Of a DNA stretch of 64,000 nucleotides, positions 11,590 through 50,989 are shown in pieces (the first letter of the stretch is position 1; each line of letters starts with the position of its first letter). Origin of the DNA: an uncultured bacterium (GTDB lineage: Bacteria; Nitrospirota; Thermodesulfovibrionia; Thermodesulfovibrionales; Dissulfurispiraceae); NCBI GenBank assembly GCA_937949555.1, contig CALEDV010000023.1, positions 12,869 to 76,868 of the forward strand, in the 5' to 3' direction. The notes under the pieces were generated by a model. The model made no database searches and had not been told where the DNA came from. It saw nothing but the letters and a program-made list of their open reading frames with translations. The position numbers and the translations under genes are program-made.

Positions 11590-11612
11590 ATAAATCTATA
11601 ATAAAGGAGGAT

Positions 11613-23155: not shown

Positions 23156-25296
23156 TGAAGATAACCCTTAATTGGTTAAGAGAATATGTTGATTTCAACG
23201 ATGATGCAGAGGGACTTGCAGGGCATCTAACAATGTGTGGTCTTGAGGTAGAGTCTATTGAGCAGGCACAGGATGACATAGTGCTCGATATAAATGTGAC
23301 TCCTAATAGGCCTGACTGTCTCAGTATTTATGGTATTGCAAGAGAAGTTGGTACTATTTATGGCACTGCATTGTCTTTCCCTGAGCATGATTTTATGGCA
23401 GAAACTGGTGAGCTTGATTTCAATGTGGATATACTTGATTCTGAATTGTGCCATAGATACGCGGGCAGGATCATTAGAAATGTTAGGGTTGCCCCTTCCC
23501 CGGAATGGATGCAAAAACGATTGCTTAATTGCGGCATTAGGGCAATAAATAATGTGGTTGACATTACTAATTATGTGCTGCTTGAACTTGGACATCCTCT
23601 TCATGCCTTTGATCTCTCTAAGCTTTATGGAAAGAAGATAATTGTTGCGACCTCTGGCAGGGTTTCAAATAATAATAGTCCATTGAGAATAAATCTCCTT
23701 GATGGCACTGAGAGAGAATTGTCAGCAGATATGTTGTTGATTAATGATGCTGAAAGGCCTGTAGCCCTTGCAGGGATAATGGGAGGCTCTAATTCAGAAG
23801 TTACAATAGATACTAAGGATTTGTTCTTAGAGAGCGCATGGTTTGAGCCTGCATCTATTAGAAGAACCTCAAGTAGTTTAGGAATAAAGACCGAGTCATC
23901 CTTTAGATTTGAACGTGGTGCAGATATAAAACTGCTAAAGAAATCCCTTGACAGGGCTGCCTTTTTGATACATAAGATTGCCGGTGGCTCAATATGTGGT
24001 AAGATAGATATATATCCTAAAAGACACCATCCACCACAAATCAACCTTTCCTTTGAGAAAATAAATCGTTATATAGGAATGCCTATCCCTAAAAAAGAGG
24101 TATTGAAGATTGTCTCGGCTCTGGGTTTTCAGGTAGAGGCATTCACAGAGGGGATCTCTGTTAGACCGCCCTCAAGTCGTAGAGATATACTTCGTGATGT
24201 GGACATAATTGAGGAGATAGTCAGGATATATGGATACAACAGGGTGCCTTCAGTTGTTCCAGAGGCACCTATAAAGATAAACTCACAGGACTCCCAAGCA
24301 AAGCAACGAAGACTTCAACTCATAGATACCTGTCGTCAAGTATTGCTTTGTCAGGGTTATAATGAGGTAGTCAACTATAGTTTTATAGGTCCCTATGATA
24401 TTGATATGCTCAATATATCTAAGGAGGACAAGAGAAGAGACACTGTTGAGATCATAAATCCCTTGAGCCAAGAAGACTCGCTTATGCGAACTCTAATCCT
24501 GCCAAGTTTGATTAAGAATCTTGTTCACAACCTATCTTATGGCAATAGGGAAATCAGGATATTTGAAATAGCCAAGGTGTTTATAAAAGGCGCTGCTCAA
24601 CTTCCTGATGAACATAACCATTTAGCCATGCTGATGCTGCTTGATAAAGAAAAGAGTCTTTATAGGGATAATACGGAGGACTTTTTTGTGCTTAAGGGAG
24701 TTGTTGAGTCGCTCTTGGACCATGTTGGCGTAAAAAATGTTGATTTTGTGAGGTCCACAGAACCTTTTCTCCATCCTGGGAAATCGGCTGATATTGTTAT
24801 TAATGGATGCAACAAACAGGTCAATAATATAAACACTCTTGACGATGCTTTAGGTAAGATAGGTTTTATTGGGGTGCTGTCCCCTCAGGTTGTATCTAAA
24901 CTACCGGTGAAACTCCAAAGGCAAGAGGCGCTGACTGCAGAGATATCCATTGATGGGCTATTTTTTGCTTCAGCAGACAATAAGCCATCCTTTGCTCCCC
25001 TGCCTCAGTTTCCTTATATAGATAGAGACACCGCTGTAGTTGTGGATGAAGGACTTGAGGTCGGTAAATTTTTAGAGATACTCTACTGGGTTACGAAGAC
25101 TGAACCTTTAGTGGAGGATTGCCGTGTATTTGATCTTTATAAGGGCAAAGGTATTGCTGAAGGTAAAAAGAGCATTGCCTTTAATGTTAGGTACAGGTCT
25201 TCTGATAAAACTCTCTCTGACACCGAGATAGAGACTATCCACGAGCGACTTGTAAGGGAACTGCTTTTAAAGACTGGCGGGAGCCTTAGAACTTAA
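23155..25296 (+). CDS. pheT: Phenylalanine--tRNA ligase beta subunit (short form lacking the N-terminal OB/tRNA-binding insert)
   Basis: 713 aa. MKITLNWLREYV...TMCGLEVE then directly ...DINVTPNRPDCLS. B3/4, B5 and FDX-ACB-like C-terminus present. 1-nt overlap with pheS. Confidence 0.9.
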   Translation: MKITLNWLREYVDFNDDAEGLAGHLTMCGLEVESIEQAQDDIVLDINVTPNRPDCLSIYGIAREVGTIYGTALSFPEHDFMAETGELDFNVDILDSELCHRYAGRIIRNVRVAPSPEWMQKRLLNCGIRAINNVVDITNYVLLELGHPLHAFDLSKLYGKKIIVATSGRVSNNNSPLRINLLDGTERELSADMLLINDAERPVALAGIMGGSNSEVTIDTKDLFLESAWFEPASIRRTSSSLGIKTESSFRFERGADIKLLKKSLDRAAFLIHKIAGGSICGKIDIYPKRHHPPQINLSFEKINRYIGMPIPKKEVLKIVSALGFQVEAFTEGISVRPPSSRRDILRDVDIIEEIVRIYGYNRVPSVVPEAPIKINSQDSQAKQRRLQLIDTCRQVLLCQGYNEVVNYSFIGPYDIDMLNISKEDKRRDTVEIINPLSQEDSLMRTLILPSLIKNLVHNLSYGNREIRIFEIAKVFIKGAAQLPDEHNHLAMLMLLDKEKSLYRDNTEDFFVLKGVVESLLDHVGVKNVDFVRSTEPFLHPGKSADIVINGCNKQVNNINTLDDALGKIGFIGVLSPQVVSKLPVKLQRQEALTAEISIDGLFFASADNKPSFAPLPQFPYIDRDTAVVVDEGLEVGKFLEILYWVTKTEPLVEDCRVFDLYKGKGIAEGKKSIAFNVRYRSSDKTLSDTEIETIHERLVRELLLKTGGSLRT

Positions 25297-25347
25297 TAAA
25301 CTTCTCTCAATAAAACAGTGAGTTGATGTAAGGTGTGAAGATTCTGC

Positions 25348-25376
25348 TTGACAAAGGCATTAAAATAAGCTACGAT
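25348..25376 (+). promoter_or_regulatory. Sigma-70-type promoter of the candidate sRNA
   Basis: TTGACA (25348-25353), 17-nt spacer, TACGAT (25371-25376). Confidence 0.5.
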
Positions 25377-25382
25377 GTAATC

Positions 25383-25552
25383 AAAGATAGGCTTCATGGG
25401 CGGTTCCCTCGTCCTGATTTATCCTGATGTTATTGGGCTTAATGTCTCAGGCTGTAATGTCGTAGGAATTTAGTTCTTAGGATGTAAGGTCTTAGGATGT
25501 TAGTCTTAAAGACTCAAAGGGATAGAGAGGGCTAAGGGAAACCGCCTTTTTT
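25383..25552 (+). ncRNA. Candidate ~170-nt sRNA with multiple A(N)GGA motifs (CsrA/RsmA-sponge-like); family unknown
   Basis: No coding potential. Long-range closing stem GGGCGGTTCCCT (25398-25409) with AGGGAAACCGCC (25535-25546), followed by TTTTTT (25547-25552). AGGA/AGGGA at 25464, 25479, 25494, 25518, 25535. Degenerate ~15-nt tandem units (TCTTAGGATGT x2). Confidence 0.45.
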
Positions 25553-25582
25553 GCGTCCTTTATTGTTTCCTTTTTCAGAGGT

Positions 25583-26404
25583 TTATTTATCCTTCCATTG
25601 ATTAAGTCTATTTTCAATAAAATCTATAATCTTACGCTGTTCTTCAGAACCCCTGTCTTTTACAAAGATAGGCTCTCCAAAGGCGAAAAATACACCTTTG
25701 TTTATCTCTAACCTGCCAAAATCCCTAATAATTTTACCGTTATGCCAAGCATCAGTTTTAAGTGCAAAGGGAATAATTGGAACAGCACCGTTCTTTGCAA
25801 GTTTAACTCCGATGCTGTTAAACTCTGAGGGATTGAATCTTTCGGCTCTTGTGGTCTGAGGAAATACGACTATTGAGATCCCAGCGGAAAGTTTCTCCAG
25901 TCCTTCTTTCATCACCCTTTTAAAATCCTCTCTTGGGTTTGTCCTGGTAACTGTTATAGGGTTTGTAGCCCTCATAATATGTTTAAAGACTGGGTAATTT
26001 ACGAGGCTTTCCTTTACAATAAAGGTTACGGGCTTAATAGGATCAATCACTACAGGGAGCACAGCAGTTTCAAGGGCGCTCATATGATTACCAACAAATA
26101 CACAGGGCCCTTTCAGTGAACTGAAATGGTTTACGCCTGTTATCTCAAATACCATTCCTATTTTCTCAAGGGCCTGAAGTACTGTAAAGCTTGTTTTTGC
26201 CCAAGCTTTTTTGTCATAGGCACCCCTCTTTGCAATACCGCTATCAAAAAAAATTATAGAAAACAACTTAGGATAAAAAAAGCATTCTGGAAAGATCTTC
26301 AAAAGGGACACAGACTTCTTGGGATTTGTTCTATAAGTTCCTGATTCATCAAATTCTAAGGGACTGTCAATGTTCATAGATGTGATTATACCCTTATAGA
26401 GCAT
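25583..26404 (-). CDS. Lysophospholipid (1-acyl-sn-glycerol-3-phosphate) acyltransferase family protein
   Basis: 273 aa. VGNHMSALE (HX4D/E acyltransferase motif), VVFPQTTR block. Confidence 0.7.
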   Translation of the reverse strand: MLYKGIITSMNIDSPLEFDESGTYRTNPKKSVSLLKIFPECFFYPKLFSIIFFDSGIAKRGAYDKKAWAKTSFTVLQALEKIGMVFEITGVNHFSSLKGPCVFVGNHMSALETAVLPVVIDPIKPVTFIVKESLVNYPVFKHIMRATNPITVTRTNPREDFKRVMKEGLEKLSAGISIVVFPQTTRAERFNPSEFNSIGVKLAKNGAVPIIPFALKTDAWHNGKIIRDFGRLEINKGVFFAFGEPIFVKDRGSEEQRKIIDFIENRLNQWKDK

Positions 26405-26432
26405 AAGAATGCTATAATCTTAATCTTAAATT

Positions 26433-27698
26433 ATGAACACCAGCGTAAGATATCATGATAGCCTTTATGAGCAGCTTAAGACCCTCAGGGATTTTACGGC
26501 AATAATCAACTCCACCCTTGATTTAGACGATCTCATGAATATAGTTATGGAAAAGGCTAAGACAGAGCTTCAGGCTGAGGCATGTTCAATACTCTTTTAC
26601 AATGAGAGAACAAAAAAACTTGAGTTTGAGGTTGCTATTTGCAACAATCCCGATACCTGCGAGACTTTGAAGGAGAAGATATATATCGATCTCGGGCAGG
26701 GTATAGCAGGCTGGACTGCCCTTCACCAGCAGCCTCTTTACATAGAAGATGTCAACAAGGATGAAAGGTTCTTCAGCGGCGCCGATAAGACCACAGGTTT
26801 TGTCACAAAGAGCATCATATCAATGCCTTTAATAGGCAGAAGAGGGCTTATAGGCGTAGCAGAGATTATCAATCCTGCCCGCAAGGATTATGACAAGGAG
26901 ATATTTGGAGCCCTATGCAAACAGTTTGCCATAGCCATAGAGAATGCCCTTCTATTTAAAGAGTCCATTGAAAGGGAAAGGATTAGACAGGAGTTGGATA
27001 TTGCTGCATCAATCCAAAAGAGCTTCTTACCGGAGGAACCTTTGCTGCGTAGGGGAGACTATACAGTGAGGGCTATAAATATACCTGCCTATGCTATAGG
27101 AGGAGATATATACGATTTTGTTGATTTGACTAACGATAGGGTAGGGGTGCTTATTGGCGATATATCTGGCAAGGGGATCTCTGCGGCGCTTTATATGGCG
27201 AAGGTTATAAGTGATTTTAGGCATGTGAGCGTAAAGCAAGACTCTGTCTCTGGCACTATTAATCTTATGAATACCCTGATTTCAAGGGCGCCCAGAGGGA
27301 TGTTTCTTACCGCTATATATTTGATTTTTCACTACTACAGCGGTTCTATAGAATATATTAATGCAGGGCACCTTCCTATTATAAAGGTATCTCAATCAGG
27401 GGAGATTAAAATCATTGAGGCTGTTTCTGGTCCACCTCTTGGCATATTGATTGAGGATTACACCCCCTTTGAACTGAGGCTTGAAAGGGGCGATAGGATT
27501 ATATTGCTCACTGATGGTGTGATGGATGCCAAAGACAAAAAGGGCAGCCCCTTTGGATTTCAGGATTTGGTATCCTTTATAAGACATAGGGCTTCCTCTA
27601 ACCGATTGATTGATATGCTGGCGCAGTATGCAAATGATCTTGCAGGGGGGCAACAGAGAGTTGACGATATTACAATCGTAGAGGTAAAGAGGCAATGA
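26433..27698 (+). CDS. GAF-domain PP2C (SpoIIE/RsbU-type) serine phosphatase
   Basis: 421 aa. N-terminal GAF (LDLDDLMNIVMEKA...GIAGW...), then AASIQKSFLPE, GGDIYDF, LIGDISGKGISAALYMA, LLTDGV.DA. Confidence 0.85.
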   Translation: MNTSVRYHDSLYEQLKTLRDFTAIINSTLDLDDLMNIVMEKAKTELQAEACSILFYNERTKKLEFEVAICNNPDTCETLKEKIYIDLGQGIAGWTALHQQPLYIEDVNKDERFFSGADKTTGFVTKSIISMPLIGRRGLIGVAEIINPARKDYDKEIFGALCKQFAIAIENALLFKESIERERIRQELDIAASIQKSFLPEEPLLRRGDYTVRAINIPAYAIGGDIYDFVDLTNDRVGVLIGDISGKGISAALYMAKVISDFRHVSVKQDSVSGTINLMNTLISRAPRGMFLTAIYLIFHYYSGSIEYINAGHLPIIKVSQSGEIKIIEAVSGPPLGILIEDYTPFELRLERGDRIILLTDGVMDAKDKKGSPFGFQDLVSFIRHRASSNRLIDMLAQYANDLAGGQQRVDDITIVEVKRQ

Positions 27699-28108
27699 AA
27701 AAACCCTTGATGCACAAGGCTGCAATAACTATATCCTCTCATCCAATGTATCTGAGTATTGTAAGAGTATTCCTTGAAAAACTACTAAAACTTATGGACC
27801 TGCCTACATATATGGTTGAGGATCTAAAGAGCGCTGTTGATGAAGCCTGTTCAAATGTAATAAAGTATGCTTATAAAAACGACTATGAAAGGACCATAAA
27901 GGTATCCTTTGAGTGTACCAGCGATAAGGTAGAAGTGGTCATAGAGGACAGGGGTGAAAAACCTGCTGATACGGAGTTTCAAGGAAGGGATCTTAGGGAT
28001 TTAAAACCAGGAGGGTTAGGTATGCACTTTATCAGGAAGGCCTTTGATGAGATAAGATTTAGACGAATAAGGGGGATAAATAAACTTACCCTGATGAGGC
28101 GTTTGTAA
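27695..28108 (+). CDS. RsbW/SpoIIAB-like anti-sigma-type serine kinase (HATPase_c)
   Basis: 137 aa. N-box EACSNVIKYAY, DRGEK, GGLGMHFIRKAFDE. 4-nt overlap with the phosphatase gene. Confidence 0.8.
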   Translation: MKKPLMHKAAITISSHPMYLSIVRVFLEKLLKLMDLPTYMVEDLKSAVDEACSNVIKYAYKNDYERTIKVSFECTSDKVEVVIEDRGEKPADTEFQGRDLRDLKPGGLGMHFIRKAFDEIRFRRIRGINKLTLMRRL

Positions 28109-28109
28109 A

Positions 28110-28439
28110 ATGGATATTAACATTGAAGATGTAGGAAAAGGCAAGAAGGTGTCCCTTTCGGGCGAGATTGATATGCACACATCACCTGAACTTAGGAAGG
28201 CACTGTTAAAACTCACTAAGGAGAAGATATCCCCAATTATCATAGACCTTAAAAACGTAAGCTACATGGACAGTTCAGCAATAGCCACCTTTGTAGAGGC
28301 TCTAAAATCAATGATGTCCTATAAGGGCTCTATGAGGCTTTGCAATCTATCACCTCGGGTGCAGGAGATCTTTGCCTTTGCCAAACTTGATAGGGTCTTT
28401 ACAATCTGCAAAGACATAGAAGATGCCCTATCTCGTTGA
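28110..28439 (+). CDS. STAS-domain protein (RsbV/SpoIIAA-like anti-anti-sigma; candidate MlaB equivalent)
   Basis: 109 aa. IIIDLKNVSYMDSSAIATFVEAL with Ser55 at the canonical phospho-site. Starts 1 nt after the kinase stop. mlaE starts 17 nt before its stop. Confidence 0.8.
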   Translation: MDINIEDVGKGKKVSLSGEIDMHTSPELRKALLKLTKEKISPIIIDLKNVSYMDSSAIATFVEALKSMMSYKGSMRLCNLSPRVQEIFAFAKLDRVFTICKDIEDALSR

Positions 28440-29229
28440 CAGTTTGATCGCACTTATAGGTAAAAAGACTCTCTCTCTGCTTGCTGTTTTAAGGGATGTA
28501 TCAATTCTAATTAACAGTGTATTCTACTGGACCTTTATAGCCCCCTTTACTACCGGCAAATTAAGAATTAAGTCAACGGTATCAGAAATGGTTAAGGTGG
28601 GCTATAATTCTATACCTATTGTTGCAGTAATTTCTTTCTTTGTGGGAATTATATTAGCTCTTCAGTCTGCCTATCAGCTTAAAAAGGTTGGAGCATTAAT
28701 ATATATAGCAAATCTTGTGGGTGTGTCTCTTACAAGGGAATTAGGACCTATTTTAACTGCCATTATAGTTGCAGGTAGAAGTGGTTCTGCCTTTGCAGCA
28801 GAGATAGGTTCTATGAAGGCTGCTGAGGAAGTAGATGCCCTGAAGAGCATGGGAATTAATCCAGTGAGCTTTCTGGTTTCTCCAAAGATGCTGGCAATGC
28901 TTATTATGGTGCCCTGTTTAACGGTAATCTCAGATTTTGTTGGTATCCTTGGTGGTTTTGTACTCTCTGTAACAGTGGTCAATATACACCCACAGAGTTA
29001 TATTCAGCAGACCATCAATGCACTGATGGTAAAGGATGTGATCACAGGATTAGTTAAAGCCGTTGCCTTTGGAGGAATTATTACTATTGTTGGCGCTTAT
29101 CAGGGCTTTCAGGTCAGTGGTGGCGCAGAAGAGGTAGGTATGAGAACTACTGCATCGGTAGTATCATCAATCTTCATGGTAATACTGTTTGATCTGTTCT
29201 TTACGGTACTGTTTTATTACTTTACCTAA
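28423..29229 (+). CDS. mlaE: MlaE-family ABC permease
   Basis: 268 aa. SIPIV....FVG.ILALQ, LTRELGPILTAIIVAGRSGSAFAAEIGSMK..EE.DAL..MGI.P (MlaE/Ttg2B signature). Confidence 0.88.
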   Translation: MPYLVDSLIALIGKKTLSLLAVLRDVSILINSVFYWTFIAPFTTGKLRIKSTVSEMVKVGYNSIPIVAVISFFVGIILALQSAYQLKKVGALIYIANLVGVSLTRELGPILTAIIVAGRSGSAFAAEIGSMKAAEEVDALKSMGINPVSFLVSPKMLAMLIMVPCLTVISDFVGILGGFVLSVTVVNIHPQSYIQQTINALMVKDVITGLVKAVAFGGIITIVGAYQGFQVSGGAEEVGMRTTASVVSSIFMVILFDLFFTVLFYYFT

Positions 29230-29231
29230 AT

Positions 29232-30023
29232 ATGCAAAACGAAAGCGCTATTACTATAAAAAATCTTATTACAAGATATGGTGATAAATTAATCTTAAAG
29301 GACCTCTCCTTTGAGATACCAAGGTCAAAGATAACTGCTATTGTTGGGGGAAGCGGATGCGGTAAAAGCACCCTACTTAAGCATATTATAGGTCTTCTAA
29401 AGCCAGCCTCTGGCAGTATATTAGTTGGCGGCAGAGATATAGTTGCAATGAATGAAAGGGAGTTGAATGAATTTAGAAGGCGCATAGGCGTGCTTTTTCA
29501 AGGATCAGCGCTGTTAAATTCTATGACTATAGAGGACAATGTGGCGCTACCTATCAGGGAACATGCAAGATTGAATGAGGCAACCATTAAAATAATGGTG
29601 AAGATGAAGCTTGACCTTGTTGGACTCTCAGGCTTTGATGATTTCTTCCCAGCTCAACTTTCTGGAGGCATGAAAAAAAGGGCTGGCATTGCAAGGGCAA
29701 TGGCGCTCGATCCCGAGATGCTTTTTTTTGACGAGCCACAGGCAGGGCTTGATCCTATTACAGCCGCTGGCTTAGACGAACTGATAATGAAGTTAAGAGA
29801 TATTTTTAAAATGACCCTTGTAGTAGTCACCCATGAACTGCACAGCCTTTTTACTATAGCGGATCATATAATAATGCTTGATAAGGGTGAATTGATCTTT
29901 ACGGGCACAGTAGAACAATTTAAGTTCTCTGAACATCCTAAGATAAAGAGGTTTATTTCAAGACAGGTTGAAGAAGATAAATACTGTCCAGAGGATTATT
30001 TTAATATAATAACTGCAGATTAA
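29232..30023 (+). CDS. mlaF: MlaF-family ABC ATP-binding protein
   Basis: 263 aa. GGSGCGKST Walker A, LSGGMKKRAGIARA signature, LFFDEP Walker B, VTHEL. Confidence 0.88.
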   Translation: MQNESAITIKNLITRYGDKLILKDLSFEIPRSKITAIVGGSGCGKSTLLKHIIGLLKPASGSILVGGRDIVAMNERELNEFRRRIGVLFQGSALLNSMTIEDNVALPIREHARLNEATIKIMVKMKLDLVGLSGFDDFFPAQLSGGMKKRAGIARAMALDPEMLFFDEPQAGLDPITAAGLDELIMKLRDIFKMTLVVVTHELHSLFTIADHIIMLDKGELIFTGTVEQFKFSEHPKIKRFISRQVEEDKYCPEDYFNIITAD

Positions 30024-30039
30024 CTTAGGAGACAAAGGC

Positions 30040-30942
30040 ATGAGAGAAGAGATTAAGGCGGGTTTGATTGTTATTGGGGCAATGGCTATACTAATAATCT
30101 CTGTTATTGCTATTGGAGGCAGTAAGTTATTTGATAGCTTTGATGTCTATTACACAAAGCTCTTCAATGTGACAGGTCTTGAATCGGGTTCACAGGTGAA
30201 ACTCGGGGGCATGACCGTTGGCAGAGTTCTTTCAATAAGTCCGCCAGCAAAGGAGAATGACCCTATTCTTATTGAGATCGGATTAAAAAAAGGCACGCCT
30301 TTATATGAGGGCATAACTGCTTCAATTAGCCAGGTTGGTTTTGTGGGAGACATTTTTCTTCAGCTATCCCTGAGCAATAAGATGGGTAAACCAATAAAGA
30401 CAGGAGAAACTATTCCCTCTGTGGAACAGTCCAATTTTAACACTATAATGGCAAAGGCAGAGGCATTAACCCTATCTTTGAAGAAGTTGGTAGAGGATGT
30501 TGACAAGGTATTTAATGATGACAATATCAATAATGTATCGGAGATTATTAAAAACACAAATAAACTTGTAGTGAGCACCGACAACAGGCTTGATAAGTTG
30601 ATAGCCTCACTCAAGTCTCTATCTGAAAAACTTTCAGTTACCATATCAAAGGCGGAACTTATTATGGATGATAATAGAGACAACCTCAAACAGGTAATCC
30701 TAAAGGCAAAGGACGATATGGTTGCCCTTGAGGGACTTATACAATCCCTTGAATCGTCCTCTGAAAATCTTGGTAATATGCTAATAAAGGCTGAACACCT
30801 AATAGATACTCAAAATGACAATCTCGATCAGCTTTTTAGGAAAGTGATAAAGACTACTGAGACACTAAACGATGCAATAAGTAATCTCAATCAGCGTCCC
30901 TGGAGGATAATATACCGGGAACGTTCTCAAAGGGAGGAGTAA
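30040..30942 (+). CDS. mlaD: MlaD/MCE-domain protein with extended coiled-coil C-terminus
   Basis: 300 aa. N-terminal TM, MCE core F.NV.GLE.GS.VKLGGM.VGRV, long helical tail. Confidence 0.8.
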   Translation: MREEIKAGLIVIGAMAILIISVIAIGGSKLFDSFDVYYTKLFNVTGLESGSQVKLGGMTVGRVLSISPPAKENDPILIEIGLKKGTPLYEGITASISQVGFVGDIFLQLSLSNKMGKPIKTGETIPSVEQSNFNTIMAKAEALTLSLKKLVEDVDKVFNDDNINNVSEIIKNTNKLVVSTDNRLDKLIASLKSLSEKLSVTISKAELIMDDNRDNLKQVILKAKDDMVALEGLIQSLESSSENLGNMLIKAEHLIDTQNDNLDQLFRKVIKTTETLNDAISNLNQRPWRIIYRERSQREE

Positions 30943-30945
30943 GAT

Positions 30946-31548
30946 ATGAATAGGGTCTTGATTTGTAAAATAGTGTTCTTTTTTATATTGTGCTCCTCTT
31001 GCTCAACCACTGAGACAAAGATATATAGTCTTTATTTAAATGACCTTAAGGAATACAAAAACACGCAAAAGGTAGATGCAGTTGCCTTCATACATATAAA
31101 GGCACATAAGTATTTGGAACAACCCTACATAGTTTTTAAGACTTCACCCTATGAACTCACCCCTTCATCCTACGCCAAATGGGATACATACCCATCGGAG
31201 ATTATAAAAGAACAGATATTGGAGTATCTCTCAAAAAGGGGTCCTTTCAAAGAGGTCAAAACTACCCGTCCTGTAATAACTGGCAACTCTTACTTGATAT
31301 CTATAAATCTTAAGGACCTATCCAGGTATGATACAGGCTCTTTAAGCTACGGAATACTTGCCTTGTCTGTATCCCTCAAGGATAGTGCAGGCAAAGAGAT
31401 ATACCATAAGGAATTTAATCAAAGGGAACCTCTTCAAGACAGAAGCTATCTGAGTCTTGCTAAGGGTATCAGCGCTGCCTTAAATGTTGTATTGATTGAA
31501 ATGACTGAGGGAATTAACAGTGCGATGAGAGGTCAGGCAGCAAAATAA
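30946..31548 (+). CDS. ABC-transport auxiliary lipoprotein (PqiC/YmbA-like, PF03886-type)
   Basis: 200 aa. Signal peptide with Cys (FFFILCSSCS), KIYSLYL start of the mature domain as in the family. Last gene of the Mla-like operon. Confidence 0.6.
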   Translation: MNRVLICKIVFFFILCSSCSTTETKIYSLYLNDLKEYKNTQKVDAVAFIHIKAHKYLEQPYIVFKTSPYELTPSSYAKWDTYPSEIIKEQILEYLSKRGPFKEVKTTRPVITGNSYLISINLKDLSRYDTGSLSYGILALSVSLKDSAGKEIYHKEFNQREPLQDRSYLSLAKGISAALNVVLIEMTEGINSAMRGQAAK

Positions 31549-31799
31549 AATTACCACAATAGAGCCAATTGCAACCCTCGTAGTTTGTTGATGAAAGCAG
31601 ATAGGTGGCACCTATATGCTTTCTTATTGATATTTCCTCGGGTTCGATCCATTATGTCCCCTATTGAATAGGAGCCCCTAATAATAGGGCATTTCAATGT
31701 CGTATCTTCTTGTATATATCCAATCACCAAGGGATTACAAGTATAACCTGAAGATTCAGCCAACAACATTGACAAAACAATATTGAAAGAATAACAATA

Positions 31800-32062
31800 T
31801 CGGACTTTAAGTCGTGAACGGAAGTCAGGGAAGAGGAGTGAGGTCCTAAGGGCCAATGCTCCCGCTGCCCCGCAGCCGTGATGGGAACGAAAGACCGTGC
31901 TAAAGAGTCAAGAGTCTTCAGTCAGGAGACTTGAGGCCTTTAGTAAGCCACTGTCATGTGTAATATCATGATGGGAAGGTGGTCAAGTAGGAATGCTTGC
32001 CTTAGTGTATAACCCATTGAGGTAAGTAGATGCCCTAAGCCGGAAGACCTATCTGCTTCATG
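31800..32062 (+). promoter_or_regulatory. Cobalamin (B12) riboswitch
   Basis: Conserved blocks in canonical order: GGGAAGAGGAGTGAGGTCC (31828-31846), CCGCTGCCCCGCAGCCGTGA (31862-31881), GCCACTGT (31947-31954), GGGAAGGTGG (31973-31982), B12 box AGCCGGAAGACCT (32038-32050). Upstream of a TonB-dependent receptor. Confidence 0.85.
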
Positions 32063-32457
32063 TTTGCGTCAAACTTCTGGGGAGAAGATGATGCTTACAA
32101 TTGATGTATGCCATAGTTTTTTAGCCATTTTCTATCAAATTGCCTATCTAAGGTCAAAGGCCTTTGCTTTGCCTCCAGAGTATTCAATATCTTGTCATTA
32201 CTGCAAAGGCATGAATCTAAGAGTCAACAGGACAATTATCCATCTTTTTTTGATTCTTGATTTTTATTTCTTTTTACGCCAGGCCTTTGTAATGGTTGTT
32301 TCTAATAACAGTCCTATCCTTACAAAAAACATCCCTGTCACATACAAGGAGGTGATGCAGTAGCCCTGTTATTTATGAGCGTTACGAACGCTTGTATTTC
32401 AAGAGGATCTCGAATCCCGATGGTTTTTTGAAAAATCAAGATATCGGGAGGGTAGTG

Positions 32458-34395
32458 ATGAGGTATTTTATACAAAGTGTTAGGGTTTTGATTGTTGTGT
32501 GGTCTTTGCTATCTTCAACTTATGTTTTTGCACAGGAGGCGGAACTCCGGGAGATAGTTGTGACTGCCTCAAAGACTGAAGAGGACATAAAAGATGTACC
32601 AGCCTCAGTTGAGGTGATTACCCGTCAGCAATTAGAGGCAAGGGGTGCTATAAAGTTAAACGACATCTTAAGGTTGGCAACAGGTGTGTATCAATACACA
32701 GGTCTTACGAGAGACAACTCTGCAGTAAGTATAAGGGGCTTTGACAATAAACAGAGCCTTATACTCATTGACGGCAGGAGACTCTCTGGTGAGCCTACCG
32801 GTGTGTTTGAGATAGATAGGATTACCGTTGAGGATATTGAACGGATTGAGATCGTCAGAGGTCCTGTGAGCGCCCTTTATGGTAGTGATGCCCTTGGAGG
32901 TGTTATAAATATCATCACTCGTACTTCGGAAAAACCCTTTTTTCAGTTTCACCCACAGTTTGGCACCTATAGGGGTGATGGCAATAGGACCACTATCTCT
33001 GGCATTGCTGGCAGTGGTGATTTAGGCAGGTTCAATGTGATCCTATCTGGGCTATATCAGAGGCAAAAGCCCTTAATAGTCAACAACGACACCACCCTTG
33101 ATGATGGAGACCTAAAGAGGGTATCTATGAAGACTCATTACTCCTTCAGCAAGTCAACAAAGTTGATGTTTGACGGCTCTTACACAAAAGAGTTAGTCAG
33201 GCTTCAGACAGAAACCATGGGGCAGATAAACAGCAGTAGATATGACAATTACAGATATGACCTTTCTTTAGCCCTTGACCATAGGAGTGATTTGGTTGAC
33301 CTCTTTGTAAGGGGCTATACCTCTGTGTACAACAAAGACTATGAGCAGAGGAACAAAAAGACCGGGGCCCTCACAGACTTCTATCCCGCAGAGCGTAAGA
33401 CCCCTACAGTAGAGATCAGGGCTACGAAGGAGTTGTTAAAGGGGCATGTTACCACCTTAGGTGCAGAATACAGGAGCGATTACTACCGTGGTGCGAAGGT
33501 CACTACAGGTGAGGGCACCTACAGCGAGACAAGAGAAGGCTTAACGAGGTCAGGCTCTGAAAAGACCATTGGTTATTGGGCAGTATACCTTCAGGATGAG
33601 TGGATAATTGACAACTCTCTGATCTTAGTGCCTGCCCTTAGATACGACGACAGCGATAAGTTCAGTAGTAATATATCACCGAGGTTAGGCGTCACCTACA
33701 AGGTTTATCCAAACCTTCGTTTAAAAGCAAATATCGGGCAGGCCTTTAGGAGTCCAAATGTAGAAGAACTCTATCAGTTCTTTACTACAAGGATGGCAAG
33801 GTTTTGGAACTCTGTAAGAGGCAATCCAAATCTCAAACCTGAAAAGTCCACAAGCTACGAGCTCGCCCTTGAGGCAGAGACAGGTAAATTCAGAGGAAGG
33901 ACGGCATTGTTTTACAACGATGTAAAGGACCTTATAAAAAATGTCCTCACTGGGGGTAAGGGCACAGCTACGGACCCACAGGTATTTGTATCACAAAACA
34001 TCAGCAAGGCAAGGATTCAGGGTTTTGAGATAGAATCAGGTGTAGAGATTACTAAGGGATTAGACCTTAGGGCATCATACACCTACCTTGATGCAAAGAG
34101 TAAGACCGATGACAAACCACTAACCTTAAGACCCAAACACAAACTCGTTGCACAGGGTAGCTACCAATACAAACCCTGGGATGTAAGGTTAGACCTTTGG
34201 ACTGAGTATATAGCTGATTATGTAATGAGTGACTATGAAGAAAAAAGCTACAACACCTGGCACTTTAATATCTCAAAGGATATCAATAAAAACTTCAACC
34301 TATGTGTTGGCATAGACAATATCTTCAATAAAAAAGACAGTGAGATCCCCTTAAATGGCGTATTTTATTATGCTGGCCTAAGGGCAAGATTTTAG
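32458..34395 (+). CDS. TonB-dependent outer-membrane receptor (BtuB-like by riboswitch context)
   Basis: Start set at MRYFIQS (GGGAGG RBS). Signal peptide, TonB box EIVVTASK, plug motifs IEIVRGP.SALYGS.A.GGVINIIT, C-terminal ...GLRARF. Confidence 0.88.
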   Translation: MRYFIQSVRVLIVVWSLLSSTYVFAQEAELREIVVTASKTEEDIKDVPASVEVITRQQLEARGAIKLNDILRLATGVYQYTGLTRDNSAVSIRGFDNKQSLILIDGRRLSGEPTGVFEIDRITVEDIERIEIVRGPVSALYGSDALGGVINIITRTSEKPFFQFHPQFGTYRGDGNRTTISGIAGSGDLGRFNVILSGLYQRQKPLIVNNDTTLDDGDLKRVSMKTHYSFSKSTKLMFDGSYTKELVRLQTETMGQINSSRYDNYRYDLSLALDHRSDLVDLFVRGYTSVYNKDYEQRNKKTGALTDFYPAERKTPTVEIRATKELLKGHVTTLGAEYRSDYYRGAKVTTGEGTYSETREGLTRSGSEKTIGYWAVYLQDEWIIDNSLILVPALRYDDSDKFSSNISPRLGVTYKVYPNLRLKANIGQAFRSPNVEELYQFFTTRMARFWNSVRGNPNLKPEKSTSYELALEAETGKFRGRTALFYNDVKDLIKNVLTGGKGTATDPQVFVSQNISKARIQGFEIESGVEITKGLDLRASYTYLDAKSKTDDKPLTLRPKHKLVAQGSYQYKPWDVRLDLWTEYIADYVMSDYEEKSYNTWHFNISKDINKNFNLCVGIDNIFNKKDSEIPLNGVFYYAGLRARF

Positions 34396-34407
34396 AGGAT
34401 CAAAACA

Positions 34408-35820
34408 ATGGATATAACTAATACTACTGTAGTCAAGGCAGATAGATTCAAGGCAATGCAAGAGGGTATGTCTTTAAAGGACATACCCCTTGAGTGGCTC
34501 TATGGCAATGTAACCAATGATCCCCTCAGATTTGGCTTTTACAGTAAGAGGGTAGTTCATCCAACCATAAAGAGTCCTCTCATAAAAGATAAGGCCCTGC
34601 AAAACAGATGGTCTCAGTTTATGACAATGGAGGATAATGAGGGCTCGAGGGTTGCATATATACACATACCCTTTTGCATCAGTCGTTGCCATTACTGCGG
34701 GTTTTTTCAGCATTTTGTGGATCGAGGGCTCGAGGATGCCTTCATAGACAGCCTCATCAAAGAGCTCAGGATGGCAGAGGACGCGAGATTTATCCAGTGC
34801 CGACCCTTTAATGCAGTCTATATAGGGGGAGGTACTCCGTCAGCGCTTAAGACAGACAGCCTCAGGGGGCTTTTAAATGCTATAAGGAATTCGATACCTA
34901 TGAAGGAAAACTGTGAATTCACCATGGAAGGGTCCTTACAGACCTTTACTGAGGAGACCTTTGAACTGTGTAGGGATTCAGGGATAAATCGTCTTTCCTT
35001 TGGGGTACAGTCTTTCAATACCTCTGTAAGGAGGCTTGTGGGCAGGATGCTCAGTGGTCAGGAGGTGCATGATCGCCTTAATAGGCTTGTTGAGAAGGCT
35101 GACAGCATGGAGATGCTTATTGTTATTGACCTCATCTTTGGCCTGCCCCTTCAGCACATGCCTGTGTGGGAGGAGGATATAGATACATACATCGCCTCAA
35201 AGATACACAGTGCAGACTTCTACCAGCTCAATGTGTTTTCAGATAGCAGGCTGAAGGAGTTTACTGATAAGGGGCTATTGCCATCACAGGCAGGGCTGCC
35301 TGAGCAGGCAATGATGTTTGCAAAGGCCGTTGATATTATGGAAAGGAAAGGACAGCTTAGACTGAGCAACATCCACTGGGCAAGAACTCATGGGGAGAGA
35401 AACCTCTACAACAGCCTTTCAAAGGCTGGTTCAACGATCATACCCTTTGGTCCTGGTGCAGGAGGTAGGGTGATGGGTTCAACGACATTTATAACAAAAG
35501 ACATTGACCGATACATCAAAGAGATTGATGAGGGTGTTAAACCTCTGATGTTTATGACAGAGCCCATCAAAGACTATCAAGTGTATTATCAATTAATTGG
35601 TCAGTTAGATAGGGGCTTCATAGACCTAAGGGCATTACAATCTCATTATCCACAATACTACAGTTTAGCAATGGAGTTGATACAAAAGTGGCAGAGTAGA
35701 GGATTTGTCTTTGTGTCTGATGCAATAGCAAATCTGACCTTGGCAGGTCAGTTCTGGTATGTAAATCTAACCCAGGCACTTATTGATTGGTTGCAACTAA
35801 AGACAGGAGGTATGATGTGA
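34408..35820 (+). CDS. HemN-family radical SAM enzyme with HutW/ChuW-like N-terminal extension
   Basis: 470 aa. About 75 aa precede AYIHIPFCISRCHYCGFF (CxxxCxxC). AVYIGGGTPS, RLSFGVQSF. Confidence 0.7.
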   Translation: MDITNTTVVKADRFKAMQEGMSLKDIPLEWLYGNVTNDPLRFGFYSKRVVHPTIKSPLIKDKALQNRWSQFMTMEDNEGSRVAYIHIPFCISRCHYCGFFQHFVDRGLEDAFIDSLIKELRMAEDARFIQCRPFNAVYIGGGTPSALKTDSLRGLLNAIRNSIPMKENCEFTMEGSLQTFTEETFELCRDSGINRLSFGVQSFNTSVRRLVGRMLSGQEVHDRLNRLVEKADSMEMLIVIDLIFGLPLQHMPVWEEDIDTYIASKIHSADFYQLNVFSDSRLKEFTDKGLLPSQAGLPEQAMMFAKAVDIMERKGQLRLSNIHWARTHGERNLYNSLSKAGSTIIPFGPGAGGRVMGSTTFITKDIDRYIKEIDEGVKPLMFMTEPIKDYQVYYQLIGQLDRGFIDLRALQSHYPQYYSLAMELIQKWQSRGFVFVSDAIANLTLAGQFWYVNLTQALIDWLQLKTGGMM

Positions 35821-36722
35821 TAGGAGTAATAGTTGTTCTTATATGTATTTTGCCCTGGCTATCAGCCAATGCAGAGGTATACATAGATGACCTTAATACA
35901 AAGGTAGAGATCAATTCCAAACCCCAAAGGGTAGTAGCACTCAATGCCTCAAACCTTGAGATGCTCTTGGCATTCAGGGCAAATATTGTAGGAAGACCTG
36001 AAAAGACAGGCATGACAGAGGGCCTCTATGAGAGGGTAAAGGGGATAGATGATATTGGACATACTGCTAATCCCTCTTTAGAGAAGATCGTATCTTTAAG
36101 GCCTGACTTAGTTGTTGGTAATGCAGTGAGCTTTCATCAGGCCTTGGTGCCATCACTTAAAGAGGCAGGCATAAAGACCCTTCTCGTCTCAATCAAAGAT
36201 TACGACGATATATTCAGCAAGATAAGATTGTTTGGTAGGGTTTTCAGGGATGAAAGGACTGCTGAGGAGATCATCAAAGGCATAAAACAAGAAACCGCTG
36301 AAGTGAAGGCCTTAACAAAGGGCAAAGGGGACAAAAGGGTCTTGGTAATATGGGGGTCGCCTCAGAGTTTTTCAATGGCAACGGCCCAGAGCTTTGTAGG
36401 TTCATTGCTAAAGGAGCTAAAGATTGCTAACATTTCAGCGGGCCTTAAGATGCCTACCAATAGTCCGTACATACCCTTGAACCTTGAATACGCCCTATCT
36501 AAAGATCCCGATGCTATTTTCATAATAACAATGGGCAATCCCGAGACTATGAGGCAGAAGGCAATCAGGGAGCTTGAGAAAAGCGGTGCCTGGTCTGCCT
36601 TTAGGGCAGTGAGGGAAAATAGGGTCTATTATCTACCCTATGAACTCTTTACGGTCAATCCCTCCTTGAGGGTTGCCGATGCAATGAGGCACCTTGTGAT
36701 TACACTTTACGAAGGGCAATGA
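35817..36722 (+). CDS. Periplasmic substrate-binding protein of a FecB/BtuF-type (cluster A) ABC importer
   Basis: Signal peptide IGVIVVLICILPWLSANA, PQRVVALN.SNLEMLLA, LRPDLVV. A GTG start at 35817 gives a GTGA overlap with the upstream stop. The ORF track starts at 35787. Confidence 0.8.
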   Translation: MIGVIVVLICILPWLSANAEVYIDDLNTKVEINSKPQRVVALNASNLEMLLAFRANIVGRPEKTGMTEGLYERVKGIDDIGHTANPSLEKIVSLRPDLVVGNAVSFHQALVPSLKEAGIKTLLVSIKDYDDIFSKIRLFGRVFRDERTAEEIIKGIKQETAEVKALTKGKGDKRVLVIWGSPQSFSMATAQSFVGSLLKELKIANISAGLKMPTNSPYIPLNLEYALSKDPDAIFIITMGNPETMRQKAIRELEKSGAWSAFRAVRENRVYYLPYELFTVNPSLRVADAMRHLVITLYEGQ

Positions 36723-36877
36723 AAGAGATAAGATGCAAGAAGTGTAAGAGGCTGTTGATGAAGGGGGATGTAAAGAGGATTGAGATAAAGTGCCCGAAGT
36801 GTGGTTATGTTCAATTAATTGAAGGAGAGAGGTCTTTGAAGGTCGAAGATAAACAAACATCAAAGGAGGCGTCATGA
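36719..36877 (+). CDS. Com-like zinc-ribbon small protein (52 aa), not in the ORF track
   Basis: Own translation: MKEIRCKKCKRLLMKGDVKRIEIKCPKCGYVQLIEGERSLKVEDKQTSKEAS. ATGA overlaps at both ends (36719-36722 and 36874-36877). The pattern M-K-x-I-R-C-K-x-C-x-x-L-L...IEI-x-CP-x-C resembles phage Mu Com. Confidence 0.6.
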   Translation: MKEIRCKKCKRLLMKGDVKRIEIKCPKCGYVQLIEGERSLKVEDKQTSKEAS

Positions 36878-37410
36878 AGGTATTGATCCTCTGTGCATCA
36901 AGATATGGCTCCACAGAGCAGATAGGCCGATGGATGAAGGAGCGATTTATCTATGAAAGTTATGAGGTTTATATGATTAAACCTTTTGACGAGGTAAATC
37001 TGGCAAACTACGATCTTATTGTTTTAGGTTCTGGTATCTATAGCCATAGACCTCTACCTGAATTGAGTAGTTTTATCGAGAAGAATTTAGCCACCCTTAG
37101 AACTAAAAGGGTTGCCCTATTTGGTGTGCTTATGAAGACCAGTCCTGTTTTTTACAAGGGTAAGATCCATGGCGGATTAGGGCACCTTAAAGACACCATT
37201 GATCTCCTTGGAGAGTCAGTTATACATGCAGACATGCTTCACGGTGAGATGGTTCCTTCAAAGCTCACAAAGGAAGACCTCGATGCTGTGATGAGATTTT
37301 ATAAGATGCTCAATCTGCCAGAAAGGGAGCTTAAAGAACGATTAAGGCCTAGGACCCTTATGGACAAAAAAGAGGTCTGGGAGTTTGTTGAAAAGGTCAT
37401 TGCAAAATAA
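36874..37410 (+). CDS. Flavodoxin-like protein (HemG/Flavodoxin_5 type)
   Basis: 178 aa. MKVLILCASRYGSTEQI, DLIVLGSGIY. Confidence 0.7.
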   Translation: MKVLILCASRYGSTEQIGRWMKERFIYESYEVYMIKPFDEVNLANYDLIVLGSGIYSHRPLPELSSFIEKNLATLRTKRVALFGVLMKTSPVFYKGKIHGGLGHLKDTIDLLGESVIHADMLHGEMVPSKLTKEDLDAVMRFYKMLNLPERELKERLRPRTLMDKKEVWEFVEKVIAK

Positions 37411-38392
37411 GAGACTTGTCTTAGTCTTTGTGGGATTTTTTCTTTTAATCTCAGGCGTTGTGTGTAGTCTAAAGATCGGCAGCGTAAATGTAAATATCCA
37501 TGAGATCTTCATACTGCTCTTTCATCCTGAAGATGCAGCGACCTATCATATTGTCTTTAACATCAGGCTCCCAAGGATCTTAATAGGTGCTTTGGTGGGA
37601 ATGAACCTCGCAGTTTCTGGTGCAATCCTTCAAGGGGTGTTGCGTAACCCGATAGCTGAACCATCTATAATAGGCATCTCATCAGGGGCAGGGTTATTCG
37701 CAATCATTGTGATGATACTCGTTCCAGAACAGACTATCTATGTGCCTCTGGTTTCTTTTATTGGTGCAATGCTTGCAGCAACGATGGTCTATGGCATTGC
37801 CTATAGAAGCAAGTTATCGCCTATGGCACTGATACTGTCAGGTGTTGCCATGGCTTCCTTTTTGGGTGCCTTCATGACTACACTGATGGTCTTTCATAGC
37901 GACAAGGTTCAGGGTGTGATTAATTGGTTAGCAGGTGGTTTCCCTGCAAGGAGTTGGATGCACCTTAAGACAATACTACCTTATAGCCTCTTTGGTCTTA
38001 CAATGGCATTTCTTTTAGGTAGGTATGTAAACATCCTGCTTTTAGGTGATGATATCTCAAAGAGCTTAGGACTGAGGTTAGAGTTGACAAGGCTTACACT
38101 TATCGCCCTCTCAGCCCTGCTTGCTGCCTCTGCAGTGTGTGTATCTGGACTGATTGGTTTTGTAGGGCTGATTGTACCACATATGGTCAGGCTTGTGATT
38201 GGCTCAAATTATAGTTATCTCCTGCCCTTTTCAGCGCTCTTTGCCTCGTCCTTTGTTATATGGACAGACCTTGCTGCAAGGACGATCTTTTATCCTGTGG
38301 AATTACCAGTAGGTATTTTCATGGCATTCATGGGCGCACCATTTTTTCTTTTCTTACTTAGAAAAAATCTAAAGGTCTACAGGGCTTCATAA
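37385..38392 (+). CDS. FecCD/BtuC-family ABC permease
   Basis: 335 aa. RLPRIL.GALVGM.LA.SGA.LQG..RNP.AEPSI.G.SSGA, GL.GFVGLIVPH..R. Confidence 0.88.
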   Translation: MLKRSLQNKRLVLVFVGFFLLISGVVCSLKIGSVNVNIHEIFILLFHPEDAATYHIVFNIRLPRILIGALVGMNLAVSGAILQGVLRNPIAEPSIIGISSGAGLFAIIVMILVPEQTIYVPLVSFIGAMLAATMVYGIAYRSKLSPMALILSGVAMASFLGAFMTTLMVFHSDKVQGVINWLAGGFPARSWMHLKTILPYSLFGLTMAFLLGRYVNILLLGDDISKSLGLRLELTRLTLIALSALLAASAVCVSGLIGFVGLIVPHMVRLVIGSNYSYLLPFSALFASSFVIWTDLAARTIFYPVELPVGIFMAFMGAPFFLFLLRKNLKVYRAS

Positions 38393-39174: not shown

Positions 39175-39473
39175 CAGATATTTTAAGATATCAATCCTTT
39201 CTTAACATAGGCTGTGAGTTTTATCCCTGCCATGAGATAGCCAATTTTCACAATTGTATGTTTTGCTGGTGTCCACTTTATCTGCTTGACTGTAAAGGCA
39301 ATTACTTAATGATCAATGGCATAAAAGACTGCTCTCACTGTGTGTTGCCCCATATTGAGGGTGGGTATGAATATGTGCTCAAGGCGGTAAAAGAGCAGGT
39401 GTTCAGTCATAAAAGACAGAGAAGTGGCAGCAGGCGTAAACCGTTAGTTGATCAGTTAAGACTTTTTCTTTAA
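39156..39473 (+). CDS. Cysteine-rich small-domain protein (PF04071-like)
   Basis: CEFYPCHEIANFHNCMFCWCPLYLLDCKG...IKDCSHCVLPH. Non-ATG (TTG) start, 19-nt overlap with the ATPase gene. Start uncertain. Confidence 0.6.
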   Translation: MGDRYLTDILRYQSFLNIGCEFYPCHEIANFHNCMFCWCPLYLLDCKGNYLMINGIKDCSHCVLPHIEGGYEYVLKAVKEQVFSHKRQRSGSRRKPLVDQLRLFL

Positions 39474-50969: not shown

Positions 50970-50989
50970 CCTTATTACCTCCGTTGATC

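Follow-up and report, generated by a model that had tools for sequence, protein, structure and literature searches.

In Escherichia coli the lipid ATP-binding cassette (ABC) transporter MlaFEDB (PMC5016091, PMC7367683) is built from the permease MlaE, the ATPase MlaF, which carries an LSGGM signature and a C-terminal extension (CTE), an MCE protein, and the small STAS protein MlaB, whose gene lies at the end of the operon and for which no dedicated kinase or phosphatase is known. Thr52 of MlaB occupies a central position where MlaF and MlaB meet; a T52E substitution weakens the binding of MlaF, and T52A abolishes ATPase activity (PMC7367683, PMC5016091). Phosphoregulation of MlaB at Thr52 was hypothesised in 2016 and again in 2020, without an enzyme being put forward and with "no experimental evidence" (PMC5016091, PMC7367683). 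A phosphorylated form of MlaB is not known to have been found, and how the protein is regulated is, in the words of Kolich et al., "an open question" (PMC7367683). The 64-kb stretch of DNA analysed here (contig CALEDV010000023.1; the whole stretch is referred to as the window) contains, at 26433-31548 on the + strand, an operon with the same kind of MlaE, an MlaF with LSGGM signature and CTE, an MCE protein and a small STAS protein with Ser at the position of Thr52. In this operon, however, genes for both a kinase and a phosphatase are present, the STAS gene stands before mlaE and codes for an RsbV/SpoIIAA-like protein, a PqiC-like lipoprotein accompanies an MCE protein with a long tail, and neither MlaC nor MlaA is encoded in the window. 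We read the operon, with somewhat more confidence than doubt, as a conserved partner-switch phospho-module whose output is a lipid ABC transporter in place of a sigma factor.

Two further groups of transporters are relevant for comparison. MpcEFDA of Brucella abortus ('Mla-Pqi chimeric'), which is proposed to bridge both membranes, likewise consists of MlaE, MlaF and an MCE protein of about 300-330 residues with a coiled-coil 'needle', with a PqiC-homologous lipoprotein encoded last (PMC12436622). In Brucella the STAS module is located immediately N-terminal to MlaE and is fused to it in the protein MpcE, whereas here it is a separate, translationally coupled gene with kinase and PP2C genes before it; the Brucella paper mentions no kinase or phosphatase (PMC12436622). 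Fusions of MlaB with MlaE were also noted in Pfam by Thong 2016 (PMC5016091). The mycobacterial Mce1 and plant TGD systems share with the present operon a MlaE/YrbE-type permease, a MlaF/MceG-type ATPase and MCE proteins of the helical-needle kind, but Mce1 contains six different MCE proteins and Mam/LucB-type accessory regulators, and has no STAS subunit or partner-switch module.

The upstream part of the operon resembles the Bacillus subtilis switches RsbU/RsbV/RsbW-SigB and SpoIIE/SpoIIAA/SpoIIAB-SigF, which also combine a PP2C phosphatase bearing an N-terminal input domain, a HATPase_c_2 kinase and a STAS protein with a DSS site. In the canonical rsbV-rsbW-sigB and spoIIAA-spoIIAB-sigF operons the sigma-factor gene is found next to that of the kinase. 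Unlike these, the operon described here and the 8-10 kb flanks of 85 related loci hold no sigma-factor gene, and an ABC transporter is encoded downstream of the kinase and STAS genes. Switches that work without a sigma factor are also on record, in which a STAS module, reversibly phosphorylated on serine, acts on some other target. HsbR/HsbA of Pseudomonas aeruginosa is one, a partner-switch-like system with a STAS effector. In Anabaena HenR/All4160/Alr3423 a STAS effector controls a glycosyltransferase and phosphorylation is inhibitory (PMC13555669), and in Vibrio fischeri SypE/SypA the STAS protein is itself the effector (PMC10120452). The sigma-independent systems act on enzymes of polysaccharide or biofilm formation, or on FlgM and a diguanylate cyclase, and neither an ABC transporter nor a lipid-trafficking machine has been reported among their outputs, while here the output would be an ABC lipid transporter. 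Sigma-independent switching through a STAS effector is therefore already known, and it is the ABC lipid transporter as output that is new.

Full-text searches of the published literature turned up no description of partner-switch genes with an Mla or MCE transporter operon. A phylogenomic survey of bacterial Mla components sought MlaB by synteny, and the word 'kinase' is absent from its text (PMC10665443); a review of STAS-domain-only proteins makes no mention of Mla, lipids or ABC transporters. A preliminary description of the present locus, which was made from the sequence, had supposed this wiring to be uncharacterised, and the searches agree, having given only the speculation about MlaB phosphorylation, with no kinase named.

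Genes of the operon and the phospho-module

Seven co-directional open reading frames (ORFs) make up the operon, all on the + strand, and the junctions between them measure, from 5' to 3', -4, +1, -17, +2, +16 and +3 nucleotides (nt). A sensor phosphatase is encoded first (26433-27698), with a GAF domain at residues 29-170 (9.2e-14) and a SpoIIE/PP2C domain at residues 234-420 (7.9e-41), both from Pfam. The gene for an RsbW-type serine kinase of 137 residues (27695-28108; Pfam HATPase_c_2, 3.6e-22) overlaps the phosphatase gene by 4 nt, and is followed by the gene for a single-domain STAS protein of 109 residues (28110-28439; Pfam STAS, 8.4e-24), which is the presumed substrate of the kinase and the proposed MlaB-equivalent subunit of the transporter. 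The start codon of the MlaE-family permease gene (28423-29229; Pfam MlaE, 7.7e-79; TIGR00056, 249 bits against a cutoff of 212) falls 17 nt inside the STAS gene, the overlap being out of frame; the STAS protein thus has an ORF and a stop codon to itself, with no fusion to MlaE in the window. The remaining genes encode an MlaF-like ABC ATPase (29232-30023), whose best NCBIfam match is MlaF (3.1e-65; 220 bits against an equivalog cutoff of 441), an MlaD-like MCE protein (30040-30942; Pfam MlaD, 6.2e-10; TIGR00996 Mce family, 4.1e-19) and an auxiliary lipoprotein of the PqiC/YmbA family (ABC_trans_aux, 30946-31548; PF03886, 5.3e-11, 42.8 bits against a cutoff of 26). The preliminary description had reported seven overlapping or nearly abutting genes with these identities, and the start of mlaE inside the STAS gene; coordinates, junctions and the Pfam and NCBIfam assignments bear it out, and the motifs that it quoted (GGDIYDF, EACSNVIKYAY, GGLGMHF and IIIDLKNVSYMDSSAIATF) are each present in the window proteins.

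The residues expected of a working phosphatase and kinase have been retained. In the phosphatase GGD (222-224), D242, GKG (246-248), DG (361-362) and DD (411-412) are conserved among 65 orthologues, the metal-binding Asp residues of PP2C thus being intact, and in the kinase the N-box (E50, A51 and N54) and G-boxes (D85, G87, G107 and G109) are invariant or nearly so among 79. RsbW is the best NCBIfam match of the kinase (3.6e-20), yet because its score of 72 bits lies under the equivalog cutoff of 145 bits the protein is, by sequence, not an RsbW orthologue. Its sole PDB sequence match is B. subtilis RsbW taken from the RsbV/RsbW complex (6m36_A, 3.8e-15). With a PP2C phosphatase that carries an input domain, a HATPase_c_2 kinase with N, G1 and G2 boxes and a single-domain STAS protein with Ser at the expected site, the module is apparently a complete and catalytically competent partner-switch set.

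The STAS protein scores 93.8 bits against TIGR00377, the family of anti-sigma-factor antagonists (cutoff 53.45). In its AlphaFold2 (AF2) model (pLDDT 93, pTM 0.85) a helix, alpha2, runs from residue 55 to 69, with Ser55, the predicted phospho-acceptor, at the N-cap. The best fold matches of the model are RsbV (6m36; TMq 0.86, root-mean-square deviation 1.0 Å) and SpoIIAA (1th8; TMq 0.91), both from complexes with their kinases. By its sequence and its modelled fold, the protein is an antagonist of the RsbV/SpoIIAA type and falls outside the MlaB family. The codon of Ser55 is AGT at 28272-28274 (+ strand), as the preliminary description had it, and the residue is aligned with Thr52 of E. coli MlaB and, through the DSS motif, with the phospho-serine of SpoIIAA and RsbV. 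Because the catalytic residues of both enzymes are conserved, and because the STAS protein is RsbV/SpoIIAA-like in fold and sequence with Ser55 at the N-cap, we strongly infer that the kinase phosphorylates Ser55 and that the PP2C phosphatase reverses this.

Conservation of the arrangement across genomes

Related loci were collected in two surveys. The first, which covered one genome per GTDB species, used as query an alignment of STAS homologues only; it gave 599 pattern matches, of which 587 encode relatives, and the seven window proteins were mapped onto the loci of the best 80 of the 587. The second consisted of 80 metagenome loci picked by MlaE similarity alone, with no selection on STAS. 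In the STAS-selected survey the kinase gene is directly 5' of the STAS gene in 79/79 evaluable loci, mlaE is directly 3' of it in 74/75, and the PP2C gene is directly 5' of the kinase gene in 63/73. Spacing is tight as well: kinase and STAS genes adjoin or overlap each other in 81/82 cases, STAS and mlaE are no more than 50 nt apart in 72/77 loci and overlap in 46, and the lipoprotein gene begins within 50 nt of the MCE gene in 41/44. In the MlaE-selected survey STAS was found directly 5' of mlaE in all 71 evaluable loci, with the kinase present in 56/61 and the PP2C phosphatase in 36/46. Four further members, examined through third-party gene calls and Pfam, have the identical cassette of GAF-SpoIIE, HATPase_c_2, STAS, MlaE, ABC_tran, MlaD and ABC_trans_aux.

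Chance adjacency of the module and the transporter is ruled out by these two independent surveys, which together comprise about 160 independently sampled loci. The preliminary description had proposed a survey of this kind, and had named adjacency in no relative as an outcome that would speak against it; STAS and kinase genes beside mlaE and mlaF instead proved near-perfectly conserved in both samples and in several phyla. Depositors have labelled the genomes of the STAS-selected survey as Nitrospirota/Thermodesulfovibrionales (including metagenome-assembled genomes, MAGs, of Magnetobacterium type), Nitrospinota, Tectomicrobia, Calditrichia, Omnitrophota and Planctomycetia; one is labelled 'Cytophagia', and others are unclassified bacteria and MAGs.

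The sole exception to the STAS-mlaE order (locus L040, 6357-8330) is a second copy in a MAG that also carries a further member of the set (L005). It is apparently decaying: the PP2C gene is split into ORFs of 284 and 85 residues, the kinase and STAS genes are intact, and mlaE is absent downstream. In one Nitrospirae MAG a gene for a REC-GGDEF response-regulator diguanylate cyclase is placed between STAS and mlaE (L043:1350-2357). An insertion of 3.2 kb separates mlaE from mlaF at another locus (L028, between 7670 and 10860), and at several further loci these two genes are 200-630 nt apart.

Conservation of the phospho-site can be judged from the MlaE-selected survey, in which Asp54-Ser55 is kept in 76/76 STAS proteins that cover the site (71 with DSS, 5 with DSA). 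The invariance of DSS in the STAS-selected survey was discounted as circular, since the search pattern itself contained DSS. In a representative library clustered at 50% identity the family has 48 representatives at 1e-30 or below and 14,584 at 1e-10 or below, counts that are not specific to the subfamily because the profile also matches multi-STAS proteins and generic antagonists.

The input domain of the phosphatase is modular. GAF is found in most lineages, while at two loci the upstream GAF-SpoIIE gene is replaced by one for CHASE2-SpoIIE, a PP2C phosphatase with a membrane sensor, which is located downstream of the mla genes (L080:10739-12685, Omnitrophota; L075:6525-8204, Planctomycetia). 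At four other Omnitrophota loci (L059, L060, L073 and L081) the upstream genes are for riboflavin, and a PP2C gene is absent within 8 kb. At Calditrichaeota-type loci (L085:2245-4800 and L086:1-4776) there are genes for large Hanks-type Ser/Thr kinases (Pkinase with PEGA/TPR) and an FHA protein. The Hanks-type kinase genes are divergent and upstream of GAF-SpoIIE, and genes for a lytic transglycosylase (SLT) and a GAF-histidine kinase lie downstream at the same loci.

Sigma factors were searched for in stop-to-stop segments of at least 80 residues from the 85 related loci and the whole window, 1.13 Mb in all, using phmmer with the authentic E. coli proteins RpoE, RpoS and FliA. As a positive control the queries match one another at 1e-4 to 1e-11. 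Zero matches to the sigma-70 family were obtained in this set, even at E <= 10. In addition, Pfam gave no sigma factor, second STAS protein, MlaA or MlaC among the 40 other ORFs of the window, and the absence of a sigma-factor gene from operon and window that was noted in the preliminary description is in this way upheld by both searches. The place downstream of the kinase and STAS genes where a sigma-factor gene would stand is filled by mlaE.

The transporter and the role of the STAS protein

The MCE protein, of 300 residues, has an N-terminal transmembrane helix at residues 7-25 and a single MCE domain, behind which comes a tail of about 155 residues that is poor in Pro and Gly (three between residues 151 and 300). 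The tail is presumably helical, in line with the long coiled coil that had been ascribed to it before. Over its full length the protein aligns with 13hr_I, a 312-residue Mce/MlaD domain-containing protein (4e-9) that is its best full-length structural relative by sequence, and with mycobacterial Mce1B (8fed_B, 4e-6). The MCE homologue at one of the Calditrichaeota-type loci (L085) gives a faint Helical_needle match. The best matches of MlaF in the PDB are Acinetobacter baumannii MlaF (9e-60), mycobacterial MceG (8fed_G, 8e-58) and E. coli MlaF (3.7e-54), and its LSGGM signature, which is specific to Mla and TGD, is kept in 56/65 orthologues. The lipoprotein has a hydrophobic N-terminus with Cys16/Cys19; it has no sequence match in the PDB, and PF03886 is the only link between it and PqiC.

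As in Mpc, MlaE, MlaF, a long-tailed MCE protein and a PqiC-homologous lipoprotein are encoded in one operon, and the fusion of STAS to the N-terminus of MlaE is absent. The short MlaD, MlaC and MlaA that mark the E. coli type are lacking, MlaC and MlaA having been sought among the window ORFs. Judged by the sequences of its components, the transporter is Mpc/Mce-like and not an E. coli-type Mla system, and in its layout it agrees with the 'long MlaD' type, which is the ancestral one according to Grasekamp et al. (PMC10665443). The earlier suggestion that outer-membrane lipid asymmetry comes under the switch is an extrapolation, given an Mpc/Mce-like transporter and a window without MlaA or MlaC.

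Five loci of the MlaE-selected survey (L157, L162, L163, L168 and L169; e.g. L168:4619-8436) form a related but more distant clade, with MlaE identity of 48-52%, in which the operon runs STAS-mlaE-mlaF-long MCE-PqiC-like lipoprotein. STAS is its first gene, a divergent MarC gene is upstream, and no kinase or PP2C gene was found near the STAS-mlaE operon at any of the five loci. Since a pure antagonist of a kinase would have no role in this clade, the retention of STAS with mlaE suggests that the protein is more than that. A 549-residue downstream gene product, considered as a fused REC-PP2C-kinase of the HsbR/CrsR type, was rejected as such, the gene encoding a REC-trypsin-like protease. The REC-trypsin-like protease gene comes after the lipoprotein gene at L168 and L169.

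The clade bears directly on an alternative in which the output is likewise the transporter but the kinase is the effector, binding and inhibiting MlaF (or MlaE) where it would otherwise bind a sigma factor, while unphosphorylated STAS sequesters the kinase, by which the transporter is freed, and never touches the transporter. This would be the canonical logic of RsbW and SpoIIAB, and it agrees with the finding that the closest matches of STAS and of the kinase are RsbV and RsbW as taken from their complex, and that it is the kinase-STAS pair that adjoins mlaE (the kinase gene before STAS in 79/79 loci, mlaE after STAS in 74/75). We nevertheless hold it to be unlikely, as besides leaving STAS without a role in the kinase-less clade it does not account for the existence of STAS-MlaE fusions, nor for the fact that the gene translationally coupled to mlaE is STAS and not the kinase. 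In E. coli, moreover, the protein that binds MlaF is the STAS protein MlaB (PMC7367683).

An exploratory mirror-tree analysis of 79 complete, non-identical operons, with partial correlations and 95% bootstrap intervals, lends weak evidence in the same direction. The distance matrices of five proteins correlate at r = 0.84-0.94, which indicates that module and transporter have co-diverged as a unit. Residual coupling of STAS was found with MlaE (0.26, interval 0.12-0.39), with MlaF (0.21, 0.09-0.31) and with the kinase (0.24, 0.10-0.35), while the intervals for the kinase span zero both with MlaE (-0.03, -0.16 to 0.13) and with MlaF (0.12, -0.04 to 0.26). In 99.7% of bootstraps STAS was more strongly coupled to the transporter than the kinase was.

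The MlaF protein itself contributes a further point. Its CTE, at about residues 244-263, is conserved, with a Tyr that aligns with Tyr261 of E. coli MlaF and an Ile/Leu that aligns with Leu265(/Leu266). In E. coli these residues insert into the groove that MlaF and MlaB form between them.

A number of observations weigh against taking the STAS protein for a phospho-regulated subunit of the transporter. Against the mlaB_1 model (NF033618) it scores 18.6 bits and does not reach the cutoff of 90; its sequence match to RsbV/SpoIIAA has E = 2e-12, compared with about 2e-3 for the solved A. baumannii MlaB chains; and the MlaB proteins of E. coli and P. aeruginosa occupy ranks 45 and 47 among its fold matches, with MlaB TMq of 0.66-0.70. 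The mirror-tree signal is weak in that the resampled operons are phylogenetically non-independent and the effect shrinks in a subset of close relatives. Further, the PP2C phosphatase and MlaF give a partial correlation of 0.46 (0.36-0.55), higher than any pair expected to be in contact. This unexplained value, probably an artefact that arises because distances are less noisy for long proteins, shows the statistic to be sensitive to protein length and to noise. Conservation of the CTE is not diagnostic, because the MlaF of Veillonella has a shorter CTE yet no MlaB (PMC10665443). The STAS proteins of the kinase-less clade also keep the Ser (YIDSAG), and the residue may thus serve needs other than phosphorylation. 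All carriers found are uncultured, the 120 best matches to a member labelled Thermodesulfovibrio being MAG or metagenome proteins. Lastly, a sigma factor or some other target of the kinase could possibly be encoded beyond the 8-10 kb flanks.

Taken with these points, the coupling to mlaE, the kinase-less clade, the Brucella fusion, the alignment of Ser55 with Thr52, the mirror-tree result and the CTE of MlaF argue for STAS as a subunit of the transporter, and on this indirect evidence it is probably the functional equivalent of MlaB. The equation with MlaB that was made in the preliminary description can accordingly be kept in the functional sense, on the indirect grounds of the kinase-less clade, the fusions, the CTE and weak co-evolution, but not in the sense of family membership, as its MlaB score and fold ranks make plain.

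In the mechanism that we propose, unphosphorylated STAS would be the MlaB-equivalent cytoplasmic subunit and would dock on MlaF through a helical face centred on Ser55. Docked STAS would support the assembly or the ATPase activity of a trans-envelope transporter of composition MlaE2F2-MCE6-lipoprotein. The kinase would phosphorylate Ser55 of free STAS, by which rebinding would be blocked and the transporter turned down; the GAF-controlled PP2C phosphatase, responding to a cytoplasmic ligand, would strip the phosphate and switch transport on again. In some other lineages a CHASE2-linked PP2C phosphatase may supply an extracytoplasmic signal instead. What the analysis shows is the gene content and operon structure, the intact catalytic and acceptor residues, the conservation over several phyla and the lack of neighbouring sigma-factor genes; all contacts between the proteins, including the binding of STAS to MlaF, the phosphorylation of Ser55, the identity of the active phospho-state, the signal and phospholipid as the substrate we infer.

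In its full form, our proposal is that a trans-envelope MCE lipid ABC transporter is gated directly, in its assembly or its ATPase activity, through phosphorylation of its MlaB-like STAS subunit under the control of a kinase and phosphatase dedicated to it, and that the sensors (cytoplasmic GAF, periplasmic CHASE2) are interchangeable. The system would be ancient and common to Nitrospirota, Nitrospinota, Tectomicrobia, Calditrichota, Omnitrophota and Planctomycetota, and the kinase-less operons, the STAS-MlaE fusions and the proteobacterial MlaB would be derived forms that have lost the switch. To this more specific proposal we give slightly less than an even chance, and it is offered tentatively.

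The module might instead be a conventional anti-sigma or other transcriptional switch with its target elsewhere in the genome, its place in the operon reflecting co-expression of an envelope regulon with the transporter. All three proteins belong to families that regulate SigB or SigF, some partner-switch systems do have distant targets, and the flanks examined were of 8-10 kb (64 kb for the window). A sigma-factor gene is, however, absent beside the kinase gene in 85/85 loci and in the window, and mlaE stands there with overlapping frames; the linkage has persisted over several phyla, with the five distance matrices correlated as given above; and the input domain varies between GAF and CHASE2 while kinase, STAS and mlaEF stay fixed. 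On this evidence we consider a distant target to be decidedly unlikely. Finally, STAS as a constitutive, structural MlaB-like subunit, with Ser55 in a structural or catalytic part and the kinase and phosphatase either vestigial or acting on another substrate, would explain why the kinase-less clade retains Asp-Ser and why T52A abolishes ATPase activity in E. coli with no known phosphorylation (PMC5016091), but is improbable in view of the clear purifying selection on kinase and PP2C motifs across phyla, the abutting or overlapping kinase and STAS genes (81/82), a STAS fold and sequence like those of bona fide kinase substrates, and the lack of an alternative STAS substrate nearby, both among the window ORFs and at the four further loci.

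The interest of direct gating of the transporter by the phospho-module lies in the fact that the regulation of phospholipid traffic between bacterial membranes is largely unknown; the operon places the missing kinase and phosphatase beside the transporter, and makes phosphoregulation of the MlaB type testable with a handful of recombinant proteins. If it is true, it would be the first signal-transduction input to act post-translationally on bacterial intermembrane lipid transport, and partner switching would reach beyond transcription to an ABC transporter that it controls directly. Through the GAF and CHASE2 inputs there would then be a physiological handle on when envelope lipid transport runs, and an evolutionary route would be suggested that joins anti-sigma antagonists with MlaB and with transporter STAS domains.

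Neighbouring genes and other features of the window

The 5' bound of the operon is set by a gene for a PlsC-like acyltransferase (25583-26404, - strand), which is divergent from the phosphatase gene, the two start codons being 28 nt apart. That a PlsC-like lipid-synthesis gene adjoins those of a lipid transporter is suggestive, but L002 is the sole related locus with this neighbour. The 3' bound is marked by a cobalamin riboswitch at 31796-32070 on the + strand (Rfam RF00174, 36.2 bits against 31.5). Genes for a TonB-dependent receptor, a radical-SAM protein, a periplasmic binding protein, a flavodoxin-like protein, a FecCD permease and an ABC ATPase follow at 32392-39473, and together with the riboswitch they are a separate uptake unit of the B12 type. 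A scan of 25200-32500 for promoters and terminators gave counts equal to shuffled expectation, and at that level contained no terminator-like site on the + strand within the operon.

Elsewhere in the window, three tandem HSP20 genes are located beside a gene for a DegP-like protease (49506-52391, - strand), and two tRNA genes are found at 56808-56973. Genes for a dsrAB-like sulfite reductase are present at 10405-12692 on the + strand, and fit a sulfate-reducing host of the Thermodesulfovibrionales.

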